From the IMG/VR virus record IMGVR_UViG_3300048580_000526, positions 1 to 64,000 of that record: a stretch of DNA of 64,000 bases, one strand, 5' to 3'. The notes under the pieces are model-generated. The model did no database searches. It was not told the origin of the DNA and was given only the letters and a program-made list of their open reading frames with translations. The position numbers and the translations under genes were made by a program. This stretch comes from a virus. Shown here in pieces: positions 11,454 to 26,548 of the stretch (the first letter of the stretch is position 1; the number at the start of each line of letters is the position of its first letter).

Positions 11454-14339
11454 TTATACTATATTATAAGCACCTTCATTACGTGATCTATTAGTTGCGT
11501 CAATAAGCCTTTTGTTGTCTTGTGCATCTTTTGCTAATTTAGCTTTAGCTATTTCATTGGCTTCTTCTTGTGCTAATAATATTCTTTCTTGGATTTTATT
11601 ACCATCAACAGTATCAGGAGCAATCCAATCACCTGGTTTTGAATTTGCTGTCAATGATGAATTGGCTGTGTCACCAGCACCATATAAATCAGGGGTCTTC
11701 CCTTCACTTGGGTTTCCATATGGACGACCTGCACCTGCTGAAACATCACCTGGACCTCCACCACCTTCACCTGTGTCTGACATTCCACTATCGTCAGAGC
11801 CACCACCTTCATCTGATTTACTTTTCCCACCCATCCAAGATGGAAGTTTACTTTGTATATATTCAATTGCACCATCCCACATATCTGTGAAAAATTTTCC
11901 AATAGCTTTAAAGCCATCTATGATTTTTCCAGCCAACCATTTATCAAATTCATATAATTTTTTAAACGGCCATAAAACAGCATCAAGAACCCAGCCACCA
12001 ACAGCCAACAATCCTTTTCCCATACCTTTAAAAGCATCATCTAATAATCCAGCTAAATTAAAATCTTCCCACCAAGCTGCTATATCATCCCAATTTTCAA
12101 AAATAGCCATAATAGCACCAAGTGCAGCACCTATACCAGCACCCCAAGGTCCAAATGCAGCACCCATGGCTGCATATTCACCAACAGTACCCAATCCCTT
12201 TGTAACTTTTTGCGCTGTTGAACCTTCTTCCATATGACTTGCTGCCATATTTAATCCAACAGCAGCTATACCTGCAGCCATACCAACATTAGCTTTTAAA
12301 GCACCACCGACAGATTTAACTGCACCTGTTGCCATATCTTTCATTGCTTTAGGGTCTTTAACTGTTTCGATTGCCGCTTTAGCTGTTTCTTTTGCCTTTT
12401 CTTTTATTGATTTTTTAACATCATCTACAGGTGGTTTTTTATCAGGTACATACCCAGAAGGGTCTCTTGTAATACTCCCTTCACCAGCCCCACCCATCGC
12501 TCCTTGTACCATTATAACATACATTGGATTTGTTTTTGTTCCCATAAGACCTTCACCAGCAATACCCAATGCACCTTTAGCAGCATCCATTGCCCCACCC
12601 AATCCCCCTTTAGCTTTCCCAACCATACCACCCATGGGTGACTTTTCTATGGATTCTTGAATTTTTTTCATCAAACCAGGTGTGATTTTTTCAACCATAT
12701 TACCAAACACCATTCTAATTCTATCTTTAAGAAACCAAAGAGCACCTATCATACCAAGTTGTATTGCACCAAAAACATCTTCACCCAACCAGTCATTTAA
12801 ATAATCAATCATATTACTAAATTTTTCTGTCAATGATTTGAGCATATCAATTAATGGATTTAATACACTCCCCAATTGCAATACTATTTTACCAATAAGA
12901 TTAAATGCAGGACTCAATATTGTCCCCACAACATTAATCACCCCACTAAAAATAGCCATTAATTTTTGTCCTATACCTTCAATATTTTGCATCAAAATAC
13001 TAAAGGATTTTAATTTACTATTTTCTGCTTCTTCTGCTCGTTGGGCTGCAGATTGTAACGCTTCTGATTGTCTGGCAAGATTTAATAATTTTTTCGCCCC
13101 TTCATCCCCAGCACGAGACATTGCTTCTAATTGTGGAATGGAACTTTTATCTATTCCCTTTGCCATATTAGCCAAAGCCCTGGTGGATTGAGCAGCAGTC
13201 ATTGTACCATCACCCATCTTTTTAGTCAAATCAGCAAACCCCGGAGCGAATCCTTCCATAACAGCTGATGTTCCAGACCTAATACTACTACCAAATGCCT
13301 TTTGGTCTCTAATCATTTCAGCCATTAAATCACCAACAGGTTGACTAACAGCACCAATACCAGCCAAACTCAACCCCAAATTATCTTTGGCTTTACCAAA
13401 CATATCCTTTGTTAAAAGCGCCATCGTGTCGTCTTTAAATATATTTTTGAATGCAGCTATAATATCTTTTCTGGCTACACCTGTGGCTTTTGATACACTA
13501 TCAACATCTTTCACAAATGATTGGAAATTTTGAGATACTTTTGCTTGGTTATCTTTGTCGCGCATTTGATTATAAGTCATACGAGCAGTTTCAGTTTCCA
13601 TATAATCACCCAATGCTTTGGTGGTCATTTCTGTAGTCATACCAAGATTTCCAACACCCTCAAGAGCACGCCTTGTATTAACAGTCACAGCACCCAAACC
13701 TTCCATACCAAATCTTCTAACTTCAGCACTTGTCCCACTAATAAAATTTGTAAAATTATCAAGCGACATACCAGCAGCAGAAGCATTCATTCTCATTGTC
13801 ATCATTGAATCATCCAATGATGCACCTGTTTCTTTCATTGCACTAAAATGTTTTGTGGTATCATCTAAAGCTAAAGCTAATGCCCCTAAAGCACCACCTG
13901 CCATACCTGTCATACCCAATAATGTTTTAAATCCACCTTGACCACTACCTAATTGTGATGCAGCATCACCCAATACAGTATAATTATGTCCCAACAGTGA
14001 TGATTTAGAAGTCAATTTTCCTTCAGCATCAAAACGTTTATTAAGCATCCCTGCAAATAAATTTTCTTGCTTCATATTCTTCTGTAATGCAGCAGTTGCT
14101 TCCTCAACTGTTTCTGCTTCATGTAATGAAGCATTAATTTTTCTTTTAGTAGCAGCCATTTCTGCTTCAAGCATATCAATATTTCTTTTAGATAACTGCG
14201 CTGCTTTACCACCCTGCGCTGCTTTAGCTTTAATATCATCAATTACAGCTTTATTAGCATCTCTATATGCTTTATTCATACCTGCAAGGGTTTTTTCTAA
14301 TTCGTCAATACGTTTCTGTAATTCGTCATCAGTTGCCAT
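11454..14339 (-). CDS. Tail tape-measure-like protein
   Basis: Long Ala/Gly/Lys-rich helical protein with hydrophobic segments and W/F-spaced C-terminal repeats; adjacent to the tail chaperone genes. Confidence 0.7.
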   Translation of the reverse strand: MATDDELQKRIDELEKTLAGMNKAYRDANKAVIDDIKAKAAQGGKAAQLSKRNIDMLEAEMAATKRKINASLHEAETVEEATAALQKNMKQENLFAGMLNKRFDAEGKLTSKSSLLGHNYTVLGDAASQLGSGQGGFKTLLGMTGMAGGALGALALALDDTTKHFSAMKETGASLDDSMMTMRMNASAAGMSLDNFTNFISGTSAEVRRFGMEGLGAVTVNTRRALEGVGNLGMTTEMTTKALGDYMETETARMTYNQMRDKDNQAKVSQNFQSFVKDVDSVSKATGVARKDIIAAFKNIFKDDTMALLTKDMFGKAKDNLGLSLAGIGAVSQPVGDLMAEMIRDQKAFGSSIRSGTSAVMEGFAPGFADLTKKMGDGTMTAAQSTRALANMAKGIDKSSIPQLEAMSRAGDEGAKKLLNLARQSEALQSAAQRAEEAENSKLKSFSILMQNIEGIGQKLMAIFSGVINVVGTILSPAFNLIGKIVLQLGSVLNPLIDMLKSLTEKFSNMIDYLNDWLGEDVFGAIQLGMIGALWFLKDRIRMVFGNMVEKITPGLMKKIQESIEKSPMGGMVGKAKGGLGGAMDAAKGALGIAGEGLMGTKTNPMYVIMVQGAMGGAGEGSITRDPSGYVPDKKPPVDDVKKSIKEKAKETAKAAIETVKDPKAMKDMATGAVKSVGGALKANVGMAAGIAAVGLNMAASHMEEGSTAQKVTKGLGTVGEYAAMGAAFGPWGAGIGAALGAIMAIFENWDDIAAWWEDFNLAGLLDDAFKGMGKGLLAVGGWVLDAVLWPFKKLYEFDKWLAGKIIDGFKAIGKFFTDMWDGAIEYIQSKLPSWMGGKSKSDEGGGSDDSGMSDTGEGGGGPGDVSAGAGRPYGNPSEGKTPDLYGAGDTANSSLTANSKPGDWIAPDTVDGNKIQERILLAQEEANEIAKAKLAKDAQDNKRLIDATNRSRNEGAYNIV

Positions 14340-14379: not shown

Positions 14380-14424
14380 TATTTATAAAATAATTAACTA
14401 TATAGTTAATAATGGTTATAAATA
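14380..14424. promoter_or_regulatory. Divergent late promoters flanking an 18-bp palindrome
   Basis: TATAAATA(-) 14380-14387, ATTAACTATATAGTTAAT 14393-14410, TATAAATA(+) 14417-14424. Confidence 0.8.
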
Positions 14425-14461
14425 TCCCTATAATAGAAAAATGACCAGGAGGTTACCAAAA

Positions 14462-15550
14462 ATGGCTAAAATAAATTTTCCGTTAAATGATGATGCACCA
14501 CATGTTATGCAAAAATTTAATGTAGCAGATGAAGCGTTTGCAAAATATAATCCAAAACAACGTCAGTTGTTAGTGGAAGATGAAGAAGATGTTCCAATGG
14601 ATGTTATCCCAGATGATGTTCTTCCAAGACGCCCTGTTAGACAACAGGCTTATGATGATTTACCAAATTTTGCCCCAGCTTATCAAAACACTGTAGAGGT
14701 GAAATTCGATAGAACCATTGAACGCAATCAAAACCCATTGGCGAAGTATTTTAGAAAACCCGGGACTTTCGTGAACCTTCCAACCAAGGGGCAATTCTAT
14801 AATGACCGCACAATCAAAATGACGAATATGGGGCAAGTTGCAGTTCAACCAATGGCTGCAGCCGACGAATTGTTACTACAAAATCCTGATGCACTTTTTA
14901 ATGGGGAGGCGATAAAAGGGTTAATGAAAAGTTGCATCCCAGATTTATATGATGTTGATGCACTTTTGACACCAGATGTTGATACGTTGCTTTTGGCTAT
15001 TAGAGTGGCTACTTATGGAAATGAAATGGAATTGGATATTAGCTGCCCAAATTGTGAAGCAGAAAACCAGTTTGCTATTAATATCAAAGAAGTGTTAGGG
15101 GAAATTACGTTTTTGGATTCTGAATACACCTTTACTTCATTGAATGGATTGACTTTTCATTTGAAACCTTATAGCTACAAAACAACCATCACAGCGTCTT
15201 TGGCTGCTTATGAAGAAATGAAATTCCTCCAAGCGTTCAAGGATGCACCAGAGGATGTTCAAAAGTTAAAATCCAAAGAAGCGATGGGAAGAGTGTCCAA
15301 CTTGGCAATTGATTTATTACCTGATGCTATTATTAAAGTCACTACACCTGATGGTGATGAGATTTCGGACCATGATTTTATTAAAGAATTTATTCAAAAT
15401 AGTGACAAGGTAACGACAAAATCAATCCAAGATATTGTTCAACAATTGAATAACACTGGTATTAATAGAAAAGTTCAAGTGGATTGTGTTAATTGCGACC
15501 ATCATTGGGAGACAGAAATTTCTTTTGATCCAAGCCATTTTTTCGGATAA
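14462..15550 (+). CDS. Baseplate hub/tail assembly chaperone (T4 gp26-like)
   Basis: NPLAKYFRKP..LPTKGQFY, LLAIRVATYG, CPNC and CVNC zinc pairs; start after AGGAGG. Confidence 0.8.
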   Translation: MAKINFPLNDDAPHVMQKFNVADEAFAKYNPKQRQLLVEDEEDVPMDVIPDDVLPRRPVRQQAYDDLPNFAPAYQNTVEVKFDRTIERNQNPLAKYFRKPGTFVNLPTKGQFYNDRTIKMTNMGQVAVQPMAAADELLLQNPDALFNGEAIKGLMKSCIPDLYDVDALLTPDVDTLLLAIRVATYGNEMELDISCPNCEAENQFAINIKEVLGEITFLDSEYTFTSLNGLTFHLKPYSYKTTITASLAAYEEMKFLQAFKDAPEDVQKLKSKEAMGRVSNLAIDLLPDAIIKVTTPDGDEISDHDFIKEFIQNSDKVTTKSIQDIVQQLNNTGINRKVQVDCVNCDHHWETEISFDPSHFFG

Positions 15551-15555
15551 GGCTC

Positions 15556-15777
15556 TTGGCTGCTGAAACCCCAGAAGAAATGCAAGATATAATAAATGGG
15601 TATGAACGCAGAGCAGGAGCCTTATTGGAACAAATAGATCAAATAGGCTGGTATATGAGAGGTGGTATAACGAGAAATGAAGCTTGGTCTTTGAGTTTAA
15701 GTGAAAGAGAAAGTATATTTAAATTGATAAATGAGAACATAAAAAGAACAAAAGAGTCAAAAATGCCTCTATTGTAA
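15556..15777 (+). CDS. gp51-like chaperone segment, probably expressed as a -1 frameshift extension of the upstream gene
   Basis: WYMRGGI..EAW motif; no good RBS at the TTG; open in the -1 frame from slippery T TTT TTC at 15538-15544. Confidence 0.7.
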   Translation: MAAETPEEMQDIINGYERRAGALLEQIDQIGWYMRGGITRNEAWSLSLSERESIFKLINENIKRTKESKMPLL

Positions 15778-15844
15778 TTTTAAATATTGACAACTATTTG
15801 ATATCTATAATATTATAAACAATTACACTATTGAGGTATTTTAT

Positions 15845-16492
15845 ATGATTAATATTTACACTGATGGAAGTTGTTATGCGAGAACCATGGGAACCAATAA
15901 TAAAGGTGACGGTGGTTGGTGTGCTTTATTTGAAATTGAAGGAAACATTGAAATCATTTCTGGTTTCGAAACTAATACTACAAATAATCGTATGGAAATG
16001 ATAGCAGCCATAAAAGCCATCGAAGCACTACCACTTGGGTCAAATGTAAAAATTTATTCTGATTCCCAAATTTTAATTAATGGTATGACTGGTAATTCAA
16101 AAAGAATGAAAGTTTGGAAGGATGTTTGTGAAGCAAGAAAAAAATCCCCAAAATATGACATGGATTGTTTAAAAGAAAAAATAACCATTTTAGAAAATTC
16201 TTTCAAAAAGTCATTTAAAAAAGCTGGTCCTGAAAAGAAAATAAATTTAGAAAAGAAATTTATTTTTCAAAAGGAACAACTCGTCAATGAATTTGAATCT
16301 AAATCAGGAAACTTTAGTAAGTTAGCAGAACTTGCCAATTGGGATTTGTGGCAAAAATTAGAAAAAATAGCACATTATCATGACATTGATTGGGTTTGGA
16401 TTAAAGGACATAATGGAAATAAATACAATGAGGTCGCAGATCATTTCGCCAGTTATGCAGCCACCAATCAAAAAATCCTTGAATTAGAATAA
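15845..16492 (+). CDS. rnhA: Ribonuclease HI with a long Lys-rich insertion
   Basis: IYTDGS, TTNNRMEM, IYSDSQ, NWDLW, WIKGHNG..NEVADHFA. Confidence 0.92.
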   Translation: MINIYTDGSCYARTMGTNNKGDGGWCALFEIEGNIEIISGFETNTTNNRMEMIAAIKAIEALPLGSNVKIYSDSQILINGMTGNSKRMKVWKDVCEARKKSPKYDMDCLKEKITILENSFKKSFKKAGPEKKINLEKKFIFQKEQLVNEFESKSGNFSKLAELANWDLWQKLEKIAHYHDIDWVWIKGHNGNKYNEVADHFASYAATNQKILELE

Positions 16493-16512
16493 AGCCCTTT
16501 AGGGGCTTTTTT
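16491..16512 (+). terminator. Rho-independent terminator
   Basis: AAAGCCCTT-t-AGGGGCTTTTTT. Confidence 0.85.
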
Positions 16513-16553
16513 AATATCCCGAAAATTTTTTAGTTCACTTTAAAGTCAAGACA

Positions 16554-16750
16554 CTCTCTGAAATTTTTATTGAAACAATGGTAGCATTATGTCTGATGTT
16601 TTTATCAGAGATATCTCTCTGAAATTTTTATGAGTATTCTTTTTAATATTTTTTAGAGAGATCTATTCATTAATGTTCTTTTTATTTTTACGGGGAGATA
16701 GTTTTATTTAATTTTCAGCGCGATTATGTTTTTATTTTTACGGGGAGATA
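16554..16750. repeat. Direct repeats in T-rich non-coding DNA
   Basis: CTCTCTGAAATTTTTAT at 16554 and 16615; TTTTTATTTTTACGGGGAGATA at 16679 and 16729. Confidence 0.9.
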
Positions 16751-16934
16751 TAATTTTAAAGTACTCAATTCTGTTTCCCATTATATTGTTTTAATTATAA
16801 GAAGAAGAGTTGTTATTGAAAGGGAGATCACACACTCTACCCTAAGAAAAACATATCGAAAAAAAGTACACAAAATTATCTCTATGTTTTTCCTAAAGTA
16901 AAGTAAATTTTTTGTGTGAAGTATTGACTTTTCA

Positions 16935-17772
16935 ACCACTCAAATATCCTAACCAAATTGTTAGATGACGAATTCTTTTATGAATTTCTAACTGGAAGGC
17001 GGGCTACTAATCCTTCCAAGATTCGGTTTCTACCTTCCCTTTACAACGAAGTATTTTACGGGAATAGCCGGTGTCCACGCTTGGCTCGTGATATTATAAC
17101 CAAGATAAATCGGATTTTAAAAAATGCGATTATGCTCCTACGACCTGAGATATTTGACGAAGTGTTTTTTGTTTTAGAATTTAGTAAAGACTAAATCTAA
17201 AATATAGCTTCTATTAAACGCTGACGTTTAATTAACATTCTTCTGGAAAAAATTACTACTCACATGATATTCATTTTAACTGTTTTGTAGGTTTAGATAA
17301 TCACAATAATTTTATTTTATTATTTTTTCATTATTGACTACAAACTAAATGCGAAGCCAAATAATCATCCCATACGGACGGAACTATTAATTCCTTACAT
17401 GGAGATCACATGGATTGCAGGTTGTCAGTGCTGGGACATTGCCTGCTCATTCTTACAATAACCATCAGTTATTGGTCCCCTTTTACACATTTAAGTGATG
17501 GCGGTTTCGGAATATAATTACAATTAAAGTCAATAATTACATTAGATATCCTTGCTAACAGCTACCCTTTAATAGCTTGATAATATCCACCCGTTCTTTC
17601 CAAACGATGTCAATAGCCACACCTCAACATTACGGTCCTGTATTCCGTTAATTGTTTAAATACCAATGCTATTGTGAGTTTTACGCCTGGTGGCAAAAAT
17701 GAGTAGTTAGAATATAGTTAGTGAGCCAATATTCATTTACTATAGATTGACGTCATCTCTGATGTCTATATT
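16935..17772 (-). ncRNA. Candidate large structured non-coding RNA (~830 nt), family unassigned; strand tentative
   Basis: No credible ORF; GC-richer than flanks; many hairpins plus long-range pairings (16940-16948/17149-17157, 17255-17262/17700-17707, 17611-17617/17668-17674). Confidence 0.6.
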
Positions 17773-17897
17773 AATTTATCTGTAAATTTGAATTTTTGAC
17801 AAAAAATTTTAACAATTTTAAAAAATAAATACTAAATATTTTAAACAATTGAATTACAAGGAAAAAATTTTATTATGTGGGGGTTTTTCAAAAAAAA

Positions 17898-17981
17898 GAT
17901 AAATAGATGTGGTAATCAAATGAATATCAATCATTTGAAACTGGACACTGGAGTATCAGCTGTCCCACAACAATATTTATA
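17898..17981. promoter_or_regulatory. Structured leader bounded by convergent late boxes
   Basis: GATAAATA(+) 17898-17905; hairpins TCAAATGA/TCATTTGA and GGACA/TGTCC; TATAAATA(-) 17974-17981. Confidence 0.6.
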
Positions 17982-17996
17982 CTGGGGTAACCGAAA

Positions 17997-18929
17997 ATGA
18001 ATTATCAATTTATATATGAACAATTAATTAATAAAGCTAAAGAAAGAAATTGGACTAAAAAAACATCAAATTGTTATGTTGAAACCCATCATATAAAACC
18101 AAGAATTTTATTTCCAGAATTGATTGATGATAGCTTTAATTTGGTATGTTTAACAGCAAGAGAGCATTTTATTGCTCATCTTTTATTGGCTAAGATATAT
18201 GGTGGGAGTATGATTTATGCTGCCAATGCTATGATGTATAAAAATAGGAAAAAATATAATAACAAACAATATTCTTGGTTAAAGGAAAAATTTTCAGATT
18301 TGATGAGTGATAAATTTTCTGGTATCTCACAAAGTGAAGAACATATAAATAAAAGAGTTAAAAAGACTAAAGGTAAAAAAAGAACAGATAAATCTAAAAA
18401 ATTATATTCAGAAGCAGCCAAAATAAGATGGAATTCTATGTCAGAAGAAGAACGAAAATTGGAAAATCGTTTTACCCCAGAACAAGTTGATGATATTAGA
18501 AAAAAGAAACAAACTACACACCAAGAAAATTTTCAACCAAGAACATTTGAAGAACTGTATGGTGAAGAAAAAGCAGAACAAATGAAACAAAATTTATCAG
18601 AAAAACATAAAACTAATTGGGAAAATAAAACTGAAGAAGAAAAACAACAACACGCAAATAAAACACGGGAAATTTATAATACTTATTCAGAAGAAAAGAA
18701 ACAATTAATTAGTAAAAAGAAATCTGAAGCAGGTATAAAAATACAACAAAAAATATTTGAACAAAAAATAGATTTATATAAACAAATTGCTAAATTAATA
18801 TTGGAAGGATTCAAAAATAAATATATATCAACAAAATTAGAAGTTTCGAAAAGTTTAGTTTGTTGTGTTAGGCATAAAGAACATAAAATATGGAAATATA
18901 TAGAGGATGAACAAAATGGAAACAGTTAA
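17997..18929 (+). CDS. Free-standing HNH homing endonuclease with NUMOD3-like repeats
   Basis: YVETHHIKPR..NLVCLTAREHFIAHLLL; QSEEHINK; terminal HTH-like segment; very AT-rich. Confidence 0.9.
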   Translation: MNYQFIYEQLINKAKERNWTKKTSNCYVETHHIKPRILFPELIDDSFNLVCLTAREHFIAHLLLAKIYGGSMIYAANAMMYKNRKKYNNKQYSWLKEKFSDLMSDKFSGISQSEEHINKRVKKTKGKKRTDKSKKLYSEAAKIRWNSMSEEERKLENRFTPEQVDDIRKKKQTTHQENFQPRTFEELYGEEKAEQMKQNLSEKHKTNWENKTEEEKQQHANKTREIYNTYSEEKKQLISKKKSEAGIKIQQKIFEQKIDLYKQIAKLILEGFKNKYISTKLEVSKSLVCCVRHKEHKIWKYIEDEQNGNS

Positions 18930-19437
18930 ACGAAAAAAATCACCATCAAAATCAAAAGGAAATAGGGGGGAAAGAGAAATTTGTATGTTTCTTTCCGAAA
19001 CATTGGGTGGATCATTTGTTAGAGTCCCAAATAGTGGTGCCTTTATTGGTGGGAAAAATAGTTTTAGAAAAATGTCTTTATCAAATACACAGCAGATATT
19101 ATCAAAGGGTGATATTATCCCGCCAGACAATTTACCAAAATTAGTGATTGAAAGTAAAAATTATAAAGATTTTTCATTTCATCAACTTATTTGTGATGGG
19201 GATTGTAAACAACTTGATGAGTGGATCGAACAAACAGTTTGTGTGTGTGATGATTCTGATGTTTGGTTTACTATTTTTAAAATTAATAATAAATCTACTT
19301 ATATTGTGTTTGATGGTAGATTAGTAGAAAAATTTATTATGCCAACAAATTATGTTAATTATAAAACTTTTATAATAACAGAAATGAAACCATTTGTTAT
19401 TAAAAATAAAGAAAATATTATAACTATTTGTAGTTAA
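18907..19437 (+). CDS. Holliday junction resolvase (Hjc-type PD-(D/E)xK)
   Basis: SKSKGNRGEREI, RVPNSGA, GDI, IESKNY. Confidence 0.85.
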   Translation: MNKMETVKRKKSPSKSKGNRGEREICMFLSETLGGSFVRVPNSGAFIGGKNSFRKMSLSNTQQILSKGDIIPPDNLPKLVIESKNYKDFSFHQLICDGDCKQLDEWIEQTVCVCDDSDVWFTIFKINNKSTYIVFDGRLVEKFIMPTNYVNYKTFIITEMKPFVIKNKENIITICS

Positions 19438-20627
19438 ATTATTCGTTTAATTGATTGAACCCTATTTGGTGGAAGTCTAAATTCACTTTCACCAAATAAA
19501 TATTCATCTTTTTCTTCTAACTTTACCACACAAGCCAAAATCCCAATATCCTTTATATCCCTATCTTTCATTAACTCTAACGTTTCTTCAATATAGGTAA
19601 ACATTGGGTCTGTGCGGATTTCTGAAAGTGCCAAATAGACCTTATATAGCTTGGCTGTTTCTTCTTTGGACTTCAATTCATGGAGTTGTTTCAAACGATA
19701 CCTTGATTGGAACCTTGAATCTTCATTTGGTTCTTCAACGCCAATCCCTACAGTGCCAGCAATATTTTCATATTTCTGGTCAATTTTTTCAGCTTTAAAC
19801 CAACCTAAAATAGTTTTTGCCGACAATTGCCCATGTTGTATCATCCACACTTCCCTCAAAGCACGACATAAATCTTGGGCAATTTTATAATCGTGGGTGA
19901 ATGAAATACCATTCTGTTCCCCATAATTCCCTAAACCCCTCCTACCTTGTGGTTTTTCAGCCTTGAAACCATCTCTGACGATTTCGCTTGCAAACGCAGT
20001 GGCATGATATAATGTTTCCACTTCATCGTGTTCTGGACGATATTTGTGTGGGTCCAATTCAAATTGTTTCACACGTATCACTGCTGAAATTTTTTCTTTA
20101 ATCTCTTTCAAAATTGGGGATGCCTTTTCAATGACCCCCTTGACTATGACAAGACCCTTGCACAATTCCAACGCAGCCAAATATTCAGGATCGTCGTCAT
20201 TATCGTTAAAACCATACCCTTTAGCTCCATCCTTGACGAATTTCAACCCATCAAAAATTTCCCTATAATCGTCGTGGAAAGGTTGTGTATATTCAAATTT
20301 CCCGATGATATATTGGATAAACGATGGACCATGACGAAGATAATCCTCTAAAGATTTTTTGACTTCAATGATGGGAAAAAATCTTTCAAATTGTCTGACA
20401 AAATATTCCACATTACCAACGCTTGGGCTGATTGAATAATCACTTCCAATCCTTATGAATTGACTAACCAAATCACTCCCAACCCTTTCGTTATTTTTGA
20501 CTAATTCTTGTCCAATAGCCAATTGATTTTCCAGTTCTGAAAGTTGTTTGATTCTGGTTTCAAGATAATGTTTTAATTTTCTTGGACGATTGACGATGGT
20601 TTCGTTTAAAAATTCATATGCTCTCAT
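19434..20627 (-). CDS. Putative ADP-ribosyltransferase-fold protein (strand corrected to -)
   Basis: CAT at 20625-20627 and TTA at 19434-19436 place it on the - strand; C-terminal LYHAT..IVRDGF / ISFT / ESE pattern. Confidence 0.55.
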   Translation of the reverse strand: MRAYEFLNETIVNRPRKLKHYLETRIKQLSELENQLAIGQELVKNNERVGSDLVSQFIRIGSDYSISPSVGNVEYFVRQFERFFPIIEVKKSLEDYLRHGPSFIQYIIGKFEYTQPFHDDYREIFDGLKFVKDGAKGYGFNDNDDDPEYLAALELCKGLVIVKGVIEKASPILKEIKEKISAVIRVKQFELDPHKYRPEHDEVETLYHATAFASEIVRDGFKAEKPQGRRGLGNYGEQNGISFTHDYKIAQDLCRALREVWMIQHGQLSAKTILGWFKAEKIDQKYENIAGTVGIGVEEPNEDSRFQSRYRLKQLHELKSKEETAKLYKVYLALSEIRTDPMFTYIEETLELMKDRDIKDIGILACVVKLEEKDEYLFGESEFRLPPNRVQSIKRII

Positions 20628-20631
20628 TTTA

Positions 20632-21729
20632 TCACCAATATATAGCCTGTTGGAATAACCATTTATAACTGCTCAAGTCTTTTTCAATATTGACTGGAAC
20701 ATAAGGGTCTTTCTTTTTTGAACATTTATCAGTAAAACGTTTTTTAGCTGCGAATTCTGTAGATGGGTCATTGGATTGTTTTCCGCCAAAACCACCATAA
20801 AAATCCTTCCACATACCATTTTTATAAGCATATCCAATTAATTTGTCGCTACCACGTTTTCCAGCATAAGGGTCTGTGAAACGAGCAATTTTAAAAGTCC
20901 ATCCTGAAGTTGGGTCATAATATTCCCCATTTTGTGTTTTCCCTGATGATTTATTTTTATATTTTGAATATTCTTTTTCATCGTCATAAGGATTTGATTT
21001 TGGTTCTTCATAATCAAAATCTTCATAATCTTTGTATTTAAATTCTTCAAAATCTGGTTCATCATATGGATTTGATTTTGGTTTATCAACGAATGGGGTT
21101 AAATCTTCATCTCTGAATGGTTTCAAGGCATCACGAAGAACAATTTTAAAACCATAAACATTATCTTGGATAAAATTTTCCACGACACTTTTGACTTTCC
21201 CTACTAAAACAGTATCGCCAATTTTGAAACGAGTCTTCCCTAAAATATCACTTTGGTGTATTGGAAAAGACCTGCTACCATCTTCAGCGTACACTATATA
21301 CCACAATTTGGAATTTAATTTATTTATAATTCCTGTTTTTTCTTTAGTAGTATAGCTAATAAACACTATTCTGTCACCTTTTTTATATTTGTGATCAATT
21401 GTGTCCTTTTGGTTAGACCTGTTATTTTGAGAACTTGATTGTGTTGACCTTGGTGGTTCTTGATAAGATTGTTTTGGTTCTGGTTTTTTGTATGACCTTC
21501 TCGCAACAGCATCTTCAGCTTGTTTGGCTTTCAAATCACCAAATTCTTTTCTGATTCTATCAAGAACTTTTCCATACATATTTTTCGCAGCGTTAACTTC
21601 ACCTTCCACCCCAGCGTTAATCAACCCTTGAATAGAAACAAGTTTGTCTACCAATTGTTCATAAGTGTTGGCTTCGAATAAATTATACCCTTCTAATAGA
21701 AAAGTGGGGTCAATGTGATAATACTTCAT
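20632..21729 (-). CDS. Late hypothetical multidomain protein (SH3/KOW-like repeats, possible WGR-like C-terminus)
   Basis: KYKKGDRIV and RFKIGDTVL repeats, duplicated PKSNPYD, GSDKLIGY..FYGGFG; late box at 21758-21765. Confidence 0.65.
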   Translation of the reverse strand: MKYYHIDPTFLLEGYNLFEANTYEQLVDKLVSIQGLINAGVEGEVNAAKNMYGKVLDRIRKEFGDLKAKQAEDAVARRSYKKPEPKQSYQEPPRSTQSSSQNNRSNQKDTIDHKYKKGDRIVFISYTTKEKTGIINKLNSKLWYIVYAEDGSRSFPIHQSDILGKTRFKIGDTVLVGKVKSVVENFIQDNVYGFKIVLRDALKPFRDEDLTPFVDKPKSNPYDEPDFEEFKYKDYEDFDYEEPKSNPYDDEKEYSKYKNKSSGKTQNGEYYDPTSGWTFKIARFTDPYAGKRGSDKLIGYAYKNGMWKDFYGGFGGKQSNDPSTEFAAKKRFTDKCSKKKDPYVPVNIEKDLSSYKWLFQQAIYW

Positions 21730-25521: not shown

Positions 25522-26508
25522 TTATTTATTATTGTGATTGTAGTGAGCCAATACTGCTTTTACGAAATCTTCTTTTTTGGCTGATATTTTTCTTGTGTGC
25601 AAGTCATAATGTTGTTCTGAAGCAGTAATCAAATCATCTTCATCTGTTAGTGTAAAGGCTAACTCCCTTGCTTGGGCTTCTGTGCTTTCATGGTCTAATT
25701 GCCTTGTTGATGACGACACCTCTCCAGCTTGTTCCAAAAGATCATCACGTAAATTTTGGTTCTTTTTTTCTGTATTCAATATTCTGGTAAACGATGTTGT
25801 GATAATGGTGGTATAATAGGCGAATGGATTTTCTGAACGATGTTCGTCAAATTGCAAACCCACTGTGGACAATTGTAGAAGGGCTTGTGCTTTCATTTCA
25901 TCGAGGTATGAATAGTTTCGCCAGTTTGACCTTTGCCCATATTTGTCTACTAATTTCATAAACATTAACGCTAATCTATTAGATATTCTTCCTTTTTCCC
26001 CTACGAAACTACCATTTTCCAACCCATTTTCCCAATGACTTCTTCCACCTTCTTTTAAAATTATGTTGGTATATTTTGGGACTGTTGTAATGGTTATTAC
26101 ACCATTTTCATCTTCTTGTTCAATATCTGTATTGGTAATGTCCATACTATCTATAAAATAATGTTTGAATGCTGCGAAATTTGTTTTAACTTTTGTGTCT
26201 TTATTTATTTTGGTTTCTGCTTTCGCTTCCCTTATTGGGCATACAGGGATATGTTCGTTTGTAATTCTTCTTATAACTATATCCAATGCTGAGACAGGTT
26301 CGTTTTTATTTTCCAAGCGTCGTTTTCTTGTAGCCAACGCCTTTTCAATTATTTCACTCGTTATATCATCTGTTGTTTCAACGATGACATCATAATCTTC
26401 ATATTTTTTATCAATAAAATAGCAAAATGTTTTTTTGCTTTCGTTAATTTCTTTTAATATTTCCTTATTAGAAAGATAATTTATTTTTTTAGGTGGTATA
26501 TATGTCAT
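25522..26508 (-). CDS. Late-transcription sigma factor (T4 gp55-like)
   Basis: NYLSNKEIL, NWRNYSYLDEM, FDEHRSENPFAYYT; T4-like 55-47-46 gene order. Confidence 0.85.
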   Translation of the reverse strand: MTYIPPKKINYLSNKEILKEINESKKTFCYFIDKKYEDYDVIVETTDDITSEIIEKALATRKRRLENKNEPVSALDIVIRRITNEHIPVCPIREAKAETKINKDTKVKTNFAAFKHYFIDSMDITNTDIEQEDENGVITITTVPKYTNIILKEGGRSHWENGLENGSFVGEKGRISNRLALMFMKLVDKYGQRSNWRNYSYLDEMKAQALLQLSTVGLQFDEHRSENPFAYYTTIITTSFTRILNTEKKNQNLRDDLLEQAGEVSSSTRQLDHESTEAQARELAFTLTDEDDLITASEQHYDLHTRKISAKKEDFVKAVLAHYNHNNK

Positions 26509-26548
26509 AACTGTATTCTCCAAAAAACATTAAATAGTGTAATAAGTT

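Follow-up and report, generated by a model that had tools for sequence, protein, structure and literature searches.

A gene-free locus between the RNase HI and resolvase genes of a lake phage, with positional counterparts in cultured jumbo myoviruses

A block of 1.4–1.5 kb without open reading frames, located between the RNase HI gene (rnh) and an HNH homing-endonuclease gene of a lake phage, is likely a functional non-coding locus, with an RNA gene as its most probable form. Our best reading, to which we assign a probability of roughly 0.45, is a gene of about 0.9–1.1 kb for an untranslated transcript, which would be the local version of a locus found in the phages Phosso and PA5oct and perhaps in Atu_ph07. 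A preliminary description had proposed a large, highly structured RNA here: the block is non-coding, it is conserved above its flanking genes and its map position recurs in other phages, but exceptional structure was not found. An ornate particle of the GOLLD/ROOL type is not supported.

The whole stretch of DNA that was analysed (the window, 64,000 nt) is the start of an 89,963-bp IMG/VR virus record, which corresponds to about 23% of the genome according to a completeness estimate. DNA of this phage is seen in many lake-water metagenomes among the public sequencing runs. The phage encodes T4-type functions, including a portal, baseplate hub and wedge proteins, SbcCD-like nucleases and a gp55-like late sigma factor, and among cultured phages the jumbo myoviruses Phosso, Atu_ph07 and PA5oct are closest to it (portals 48–50% identical; about 48% for PA5oct). 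The late motif [GT]ATAAATA is present in 46 exact copies in the whole record, and several copies that were checked precede gene starts by about 22–25 nt and point in the direction of the gene. Together with the gp55-like gene (25522–26523), these copies fit a T4-type late promoter system. Promoters of the form TTGACA/TTGACT-N16-18-TAnnnT are found upstream of early-type genes, rnh among them. The features of the gap and its surroundings are as follows.

15787: sigma70-like promoter upstream of rnh
15845–16492 (+): RNase HI gene (rnh), left neighbour of the gap (PF00075, E 7.5e-28; phrog_531)
16491–16509 (+): strong intrinsic rnh terminator (8-bp stem, then a T-run); the hairpin can also be read on the minus strand
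16554–16750: T-rich left part of the gap, with two exact 17-nt repeats (period 61) and two exact 22-nt repeats (period 50)
16605–16622 (+): terminator-like hairpin in the left part, 100 nt past the strong rnh terminator
16834–16904: longest hairpin of the gap, 29-nt arms that are 76% complementary, 13-nt loop
16935–17772: core, the part named in the preliminary description; G+C 0.34, no coding signal, no Rfam family match
17749–17766 (+): weak terminator candidate, 7-bp hairpin followed by a moderately T-rich tail
17773–17802 (−): sigma70-like promoter TTGTCA-N18-TAAATT, firing leftwards into the core
17870–18929 (+): HNH homing-endonuclease cassette, with a late box GATAAATA at 17898–17905 and the gene at 17997–18929 (phrog_655, E 3e-46)
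18907–19437 (+): gene of a PDDEXK/RusA-like Holliday-junction resolvase, used as synteny anchor (PF24608, E 5e-23)

The ORF-free block extends over 16493–17996 and contains no ORF of at least 50 aa apart from two chance frames. It had been described as the only non-coding block above 1 kb in the window; this is confirmed, and the block is also the sole ORF-free stretch of at least 250 nt in the entire 89,963-bp record. The direct repeats of its left part (16554–16750) are found nowhere else in the record, and this part may be a separate small plus-strand unit or a set of protein-binding sites. Concerning the neighbouring genes, the resolvase is 48% identical to that of Phosso and 38–39% identical to that of PA5oct. 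A second HNH homologue is present in run X3 (84% identical over 18033–18214). The gene after the resolvase (19434–20627, minus strand) encodes a 397-aa protein with no Pfam match; its family has at least 70 members, on contigs of up to 637 kb that are probably from jumbo phages, and many invariant residues (e.g. H200, E204, H208, S242, E380 and E382).

Evidence for constraint within the lake phage comes from public runs that were compared over 14400–20700, using part of the difference table. In run X21, a 2,235-nt contig, which starts at 16811, covers 16811–17869 (1059 nt) with 74 mismatches and 22 gap letters (~7%). Past 17869, 506 unrelated letters replace 17870–19430, and the contig resumes in the 397-aa gene at 19431–20084 with 78 mismatches in 654 nt (12%). 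Based on these counts (74/1059 vs 78/654; Fisher p 6e-4), the non-coding block is less diverged than the piece of the 397-aa gene, a comparison that would be weakened if that gene evolves fast or has a separate history. The same piece contains two separate 1-nt deletions, so the gene may be broken in X21. Among near-identical strains from three other lake runs there are 3 differences in 1558 nt of the gap vs 24 in 2289 nt of the flanking genes (p 0.0013; p 0.02 for the gap vs rnh alone); the contigs of runs X2–X4 have no cover at about 16721–16931 of the gap. The conserved block ends on the right where the HNH cassette has inserted, the left breakpoint being 17869/17870. The right breakpoint of the X21 replacement is at the stop codon of the 397-aa gene, and the resolvase gene has possibly been replaced too. 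A sweep around the endonuclease is unlikely, because diversity has returned to a high level about 550 nt past the HNH gene. On these sequence comparisons, the DNA of the gap looks constrained.

DNA similar to the gap was not found in GenBank phages, and the flanking proteins have no close relative in IMG/VR, JGI metagenome contigs or GTDB genomes, the nearest protein relatives (P0002, P0005 and others) being 46% identical. Exact-pattern scans with four conserved segments of 18–24 nt found nothing, and a 20-mer match in a Lachnospiraceae MAG was rejected as chance because its flanks are unrelated. IMG/VR relatives of the 397-aa gene (36–38% identical) lack both rnh and a comparable gap, and nothing in them is similar to the gap of the window; two 514-nt gaps found in them are unrelated AT-rich spacers without an Rfam match. 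Also, the partial protein of X21 is absent from the protein collection searched, and there is no paralogue of the gap in the available 90 kb. None of the sequencing runs listed with this stretch is on record as RNA, and X21 could be taken for RNA by guess only.

The relatives contain gaps in the same neighbourhood, where the order of genes is portal, large structural gene, baseplate hub, one to five small genes and gap; RNase HI is one of the small hub-side genes in two of the phages. The resolvase and SbcC/D-like genes come after the gap in the window, Phosso and PA5oct. In Phosso, a 1014-nt unannotated gap (229759–230772) separates the resolvase from RNase HI. In PA5oct, 1513 nt (75.7–77.2 kb) are found between the resolvase and the next real gene, which belongs to the hub module with the portal beyond it; the PA5oct authors annotated four ORFs of 38–50 aa there, and the same interval is left empty in four independent annotations of sister phages. 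The 990-nt gap of Atu_ph07 is likewise found in the neighbourhood of hub and portal, with another neighbour on the far side. Such gaps are rare when counted as stretches of at least 500 nt without an ORF of at least 60 aa: Phosso has two in 469 kb, one of them the gap between resolvase and RNase HI, and PA5oct has nine, of which three are tRNA clusters, two hold the ncRNAs 002 and 004 known from RNA-seq, and two share a module with ncRNA004. The terminal-repeat region of PA5oct (L043 3256–6395 and 18713–19282) contains ORF-free DNA of 3.1 kb and 0.57 kb that is neither a tRNA cluster nor an annotated ncRNA. The gaps of the window, Phosso, PA5oct and Atu_ph07 share no primary sequence according to BLAST or nhmmer.

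The PA5oct gap is linked to a known transcript. ncRNA004 of this phage, a ‘putative lncRNA’ annotated at 246116–246734, is a 619-nt RNA according to RNA-seq (Lood et al. 2020, PMC7318152). A segment of about 130 nt in the PA5oct gap is 83–84% identical to segments in ncRNA004 and in a 911-nt ORF-free gap at 12.8–13.7 kb. A multi-stem module is common to the folds of all three copies. Of its 34 pairs, 4 are compensatory, and two of the copies have a sigma70-type promoter (TTGACA, 17-nt spacer) about 40–60 nt upstream. The PA5oct gap and the 3′ flank of ncRNA004 also have in common a 16-bp hairpin, whose stem sequences are wholly different and whose loop is the same, followed by a second hairpin. 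The Phosso gap carries this two-hairpin element at the end distal to the resolvase (230554–230639). Aligning the three sequences shows compensatory changes in 12 of 28 pairs, together with an invariant loop, AGTTTACGAA. The three PA5oct loci are listed below.

PA5oct gap locus: module 75984–76127, 3′ element 76947–77031; annotated with tiny ORFs
PA5oct ncRNA004 locus: module 246146–246289, 3′ element 246772–246852; annotated ncRNA
PA5oct 12.8–13.7 kb locus: module 12895–13039, 3′ element only a weak match; unannotated

The covariance model of the 5′ module (R1) finds the three PA5oct copies at 156–165 bits. That of the 3′ element (R2) finds exactly three sites in the 756 kb of PA5oct and Phosso, at 93.7 and 93.2 bits in PA5oct and 66.6 bits in Phosso. 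The family of two-hairpin 3′ elements appears to be undescribed and has no Rfam match. Weak matches to the same model are also found near 8.0–8.8 kb of PA5oct, adjoining ncRNA001. The three PA5oct loci have the same build, which consists of a sigma70 promoter, the covarying 130-nt module, a body of 0.5–0.9 kb and the two-hairpin 3′ element; of the three, only ncRNA004 is annotated as an ncRNA. Across seven PA5oct-like genomes, the gap is variable at 17 of 1514 columns (1.1%), with 2 variable columns in a 750-nt core, compared with 32 of 451 third codon positions (7%) in the adjacent resolvase and hub genes (p 2e-10). Based on the shared covarying elements and on the conservation in PA5oct, the PA5oct and Phosso gaps are homologous, constrained, RNA-like loci, which would be transcribed away from the resolvase if the strand of the module is the sense strand.

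The same models do not recognise the gap of the window. With filters off, it scores at most 6.6 bits with the 5′ module model, and the best score with the 3′ element model is a non-significant 9.4 bits (E 0.14), for a match that takes in the hairpin at 17749–17766; the loop AGTTTACGAA is absent from the gap even when one mismatch is allowed. Since there is neither sequence similarity nor a match to either model, the homology of this gap to the syntenic gaps is positional only. It does share with loci of the ncRNA004 type the location at the junction of the resolvase and the hub module, the absence of ORFs over about 1 kb or more and apparent purifying selection.

Concerning coding capacity, each frame of the gap carries 32–44 stops. 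When TGA, TAG or TAA is read as sense, no frame in the gap exceeds 102 codons, and an alternative genetic code was rejected because reassignment of a single stop opens no frame. A codon-usage log-odds score trained on the phage’s own genes is −0.45 for the core, +0.33 for the genes and −0.42 for the shuffled core. As the score of the core equals that of the shuffled core, a recently decayed gene is ruled out; a recent pseudogene was rejected on the same absence of codon signal. The longest frames of the gap have no Pfam or PHROG match, and tblastn of the ORFs of relatives and of the phage itself against the gap gave noise only. A group I/II intron carrying the HNH gene was rejected (no model match, no split exons), as was a mobile element with terminal inverted repeats, for which only low-complexity AT matches were found. 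The earlier statement that the block is non-coding is therefore borne out by the codon score, by stop reassignment and by the X21 indels in the gap, which are not multiples of three.

That the gap nevertheless hides coding sequence, as micro-proteins, through recoded stops or in a gene that is split or contains an intron, is hardly credible. It could draw on the sole SD-led small ORF of the gap (17410–17517, 35 aa), whose SD is a good one, on the tiny ORFs placed in the syntenic gap by the PA5oct annotators and on a conserved ATG inside the PA5oct module. However, the 35-aa ORF is frameshifted by a 1-nt deletion in X21, and the reassignment, the coding score and the searches with protein families and intron models all speak against it.

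The core had been called highly structured. All the hairpins and long-range complementarities listed for it are present, but in energy, hairpin count and long-range pairing it is at the level of dinucleotide shuffles, so that this description is not supported; folding at the level of shuffles is an outcome that the preliminary description had itself counted as a refutation. The MFE z-scores of 16935–17772 are −1.50 on the plus strand and −0.98 on the minus strand, and 150-nt sliding windows within it range from −2.0 to +1.1 on both strands. There are 5 hairpins with at least six Watson–Crick pairs (2.8–3.1 in shuffles), and 42, 13 and 3 perfect long-range complementary 7-, 8- and 9-mers (37, 10 and 3 in shuffles). 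The sole exception is G-U-tolerant stems on the minus strand, with a nominal p of 0.03. The MFE structure has a frequency of 0 in the ensemble on both strands, and the centroid of the minus strand is far above the MFE (−115.9 vs −183.8 kcal/mol). Among the X21 substitutions, the 39 that were listed (part of the difference table) show no tendency to spare predicted pairs or to compensate for changes in them, whichever strand is considered. The strongest local folds are found outside the core, at 16551–16700 on the plus strand (z −3.5) and at 16801–16950 on the minus strand (z −3.7); the X21 changes at the top of the 16834–16904 stem are non-compensatory.

Known RNA classes were searched with cmscan against Rfam, including GOLLD, ROOL, group I/II introns, RNase P, tmRNA, 6S, OLE, raiA and HEARO. 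The window has no match at the gathering thresholds, and 16400–18100 scanned with all of Rfam at E ≤ 10 gave only noise of 20 bits or less; the negative result for GOLLD rests on these all-Rfam scans of window and gap. ROOL (RF03087) is not found at E ≤ 10 in the whole record, nor in 14 control genomes, and RF01998 (group-II-D1D4-1) has no match. The reported lack of group I/II intron, RNase P and tmRNA hallmarks agrees with the scans, where E ≤ 10 gave no more than noise. ARAGORN finds no tRNA or tmRNA gene in the window or in the whole 89,963-bp record (~23% of the genome). A resemblance to GOLLD/ROOL had been suggested on the basis of size; the size is comparable, but a family match is missing, as is the proximity to tRNA islands that is usual for these RNAs, and membership of these classes fails every test that could be run. 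We give very little credence to an ornate, highly structured large RNA of this kind, or to a new class of the same nature. Its size, its origin in a lake phage and the strong sequence constraint would suit such an RNA, but the scans, the tRNA-free 90-kb record, energies and hairpin counts equal to shuffles and the dispersed ensemble all argue against it.

Signals for the strand of the transcript are mixed. The minus strand is favoured by the purine skew, which is slight (GC skew −0.09 and AT skew −0.06 on the plus strand), by the promoter at 17802–17773, which is the only one in the gap that fits the early-promoter pattern of the phage, and by analogy with PA5oct; the 1-nt deletion of X21 at 17787 would give this promoter a spacer of 17 nt. 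For the plus strand speak the terminator-like hairpin at 17749–17766 and the G-U-compatible X21 change at 17157, which keeps its pair on that strand only. We lean to a transcript on the minus strand. The preference of the preliminary description for this strand is favoured by the purine excess and the early-type promoter and opposed by the hairpin and the change at 17157. Concerning the late-like boxes it pointed out, GATAAATT at 17780–17773 is one base off [GT]ATAAATA, and TATAAATA at 17981–17974 is located inside the HNH cassette that is absent from X21.

If the gap is an RNA gene, host RNA polymerase would start at the sigma70-like promoter 17802–17773 on the minus strand and move away from the resolvase, as the PA5oct module points, and transcription would cross the core and end at about the long hairpin (16904–16834). 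As a guess at its role, the RNA may be tied to the replication/recombination module, for example as a regulatory RNA or as an R-loop-forming RNA that RNase HI could process.

The location of the gap between RNase HI and a Holliday-junction resolvase, near SbcCD-like genes, would also suit a cis-acting DNA element of the replication/recombination module, e.g. a lytic origin, possibly with a short R-loop transcript, in which constraint would come from protein binding and unwinding. The two pairs of exact direct repeats and the T-rich tracts at 16554–16750 are features of this kind; they are outside the core, which has no iterons or tandem repeats and whose G+C (0.34–0.37) is like that of coding DNA and unlike that of an unwinding element; also, none of the 26 near-DnaA boxes of the window is in the gap. 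Long palindromes are found at the far end of the syntenic gaps, and the stem covariation fits DNA cruciforms equally well. PA5oct has three loci of similar build, which may be compared with phage T4 and its several origins. Against this, PA5oct-like phages keep about 750 nt almost unchanged, whereas origins usually manage with less, and one of the PA5oct paralogues is seen as a 619-nt RNA (PMC7318152). We regard a DNA element as unlikely.

A non-functional spacer or long-decayed DNA, conserved through recent ancestry, recombination or co-conversion with the homing endonuclease, is more improbable still. A spacer would explain why X21 diverges roughly evenly (7–10%) in AT-rich as well as G+C-richer DNA and why neither structure nor homology was detected; separate histories of the two flanks of the HNH indel, which are possible, would fit it too. 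However, the genome is otherwise tightly packed, and since jumbo phages pack their genes tightly, a conserved kilobase without genes is likely functional. Diversity has its minimum in the gap and is high only about 550 nt past the HNH gene, which speaks against an endonuclease sweep; the syntenic gap of PA5oct-like phages has six-fold fewer variable sites than third codon positions; and a gap that is rare and found at the same map position in Phosso and PA5oct, perhaps also in Atu_ph07, is unlikely to arise by chance.

An RNA gene thus remains our preferred reading of the gap. A broader proposal is more doubtful: the gap of the window, PA5oct 75.7–77.2 kb and Phosso 229.8–230.8 kb might all represent a single RNA gene of about 1 kb that is found across the clade, diverges fast and is linked to the replication/recombination module in jumbo phages of the Atu_ph07/PA5oct type. 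This class is absent from Rfam, and the lake version would be shorn of recognisable sequence motifs. Such a gene could, for example, provide an R-loop or primer RNA processed by RNase HI, or a regulator acting with the resolvase. The comparison turns a guess from a single sequence into a comparative observation, since phages infecting Sinorhizobium and Pseudomonas share with an uncultured lake phage a rare gene-free locus next to the resolvase gene, and a similar gap is present in the same neighbourhood of an Agrobacterium phage. What is new here is a rare ORF-free region of 1.0–1.5 kb at a shared map position beside a RusA/PDDEXK resolvase in related jumbo phages, which in two of them bears covarying RNA-type elements shared with a known phage lncRNA. 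Long non-coding regions are few in this phage group, and one of them could be explained in this way; because PA5oct and Phosso can be cultured, the function of the locus (RNA, origin or both) is directly testable.

R-loop or RNA-primed origins are known from oriF and oriG of phage T4 and from ColE1, whose RNA II is processed by RNase H; such origins need only tens to a few hundred nucleotides. The gap resembles them in its putative promoter-driven, untranslated transcript beside replication/recombination genes, with RNase HI adjacent in two of the four phages, and differs in that about 1 kb is constrained here. GOLLD and ROOL are large, ornate non-coding RNAs of phages and prophages (Rfam; bioRxiv 10.1101/2024.12.08.627333), and GOLLD was first seen in lake metagenomes. 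The gap is likewise a large, phage-encoded non-coding locus of lake origin, but it has no covariance-model match, no neighbouring tRNA island and no exceptional folding. Compared with the Phosso gap, it has no sequence similarity and does not contain the 3′ element of PA5oct type that Phosso has (66.6 bits); also, RNase HI points away from the gap in Phosso and ends at the gap in the window, which we count against the best reading. The two gaps are alike in having RNase HI on one side, a RusA/PDDEXK resolvase on the other (48% identical) and about 1 kb without ORFs in between. The PA5oct loci of the ncRNA004 type differ from the gap, which lacks the 5′ module and the 3′ element, has no paralogue in 90 kb and is known from DNA alone. 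They resemble it as ORF-free loci of 0.7–1.5 kb in a related jumbo myovirus, with nucleotide constraint and no database homologue, and one copy of this type is located at the same map position, beside the resolvase.
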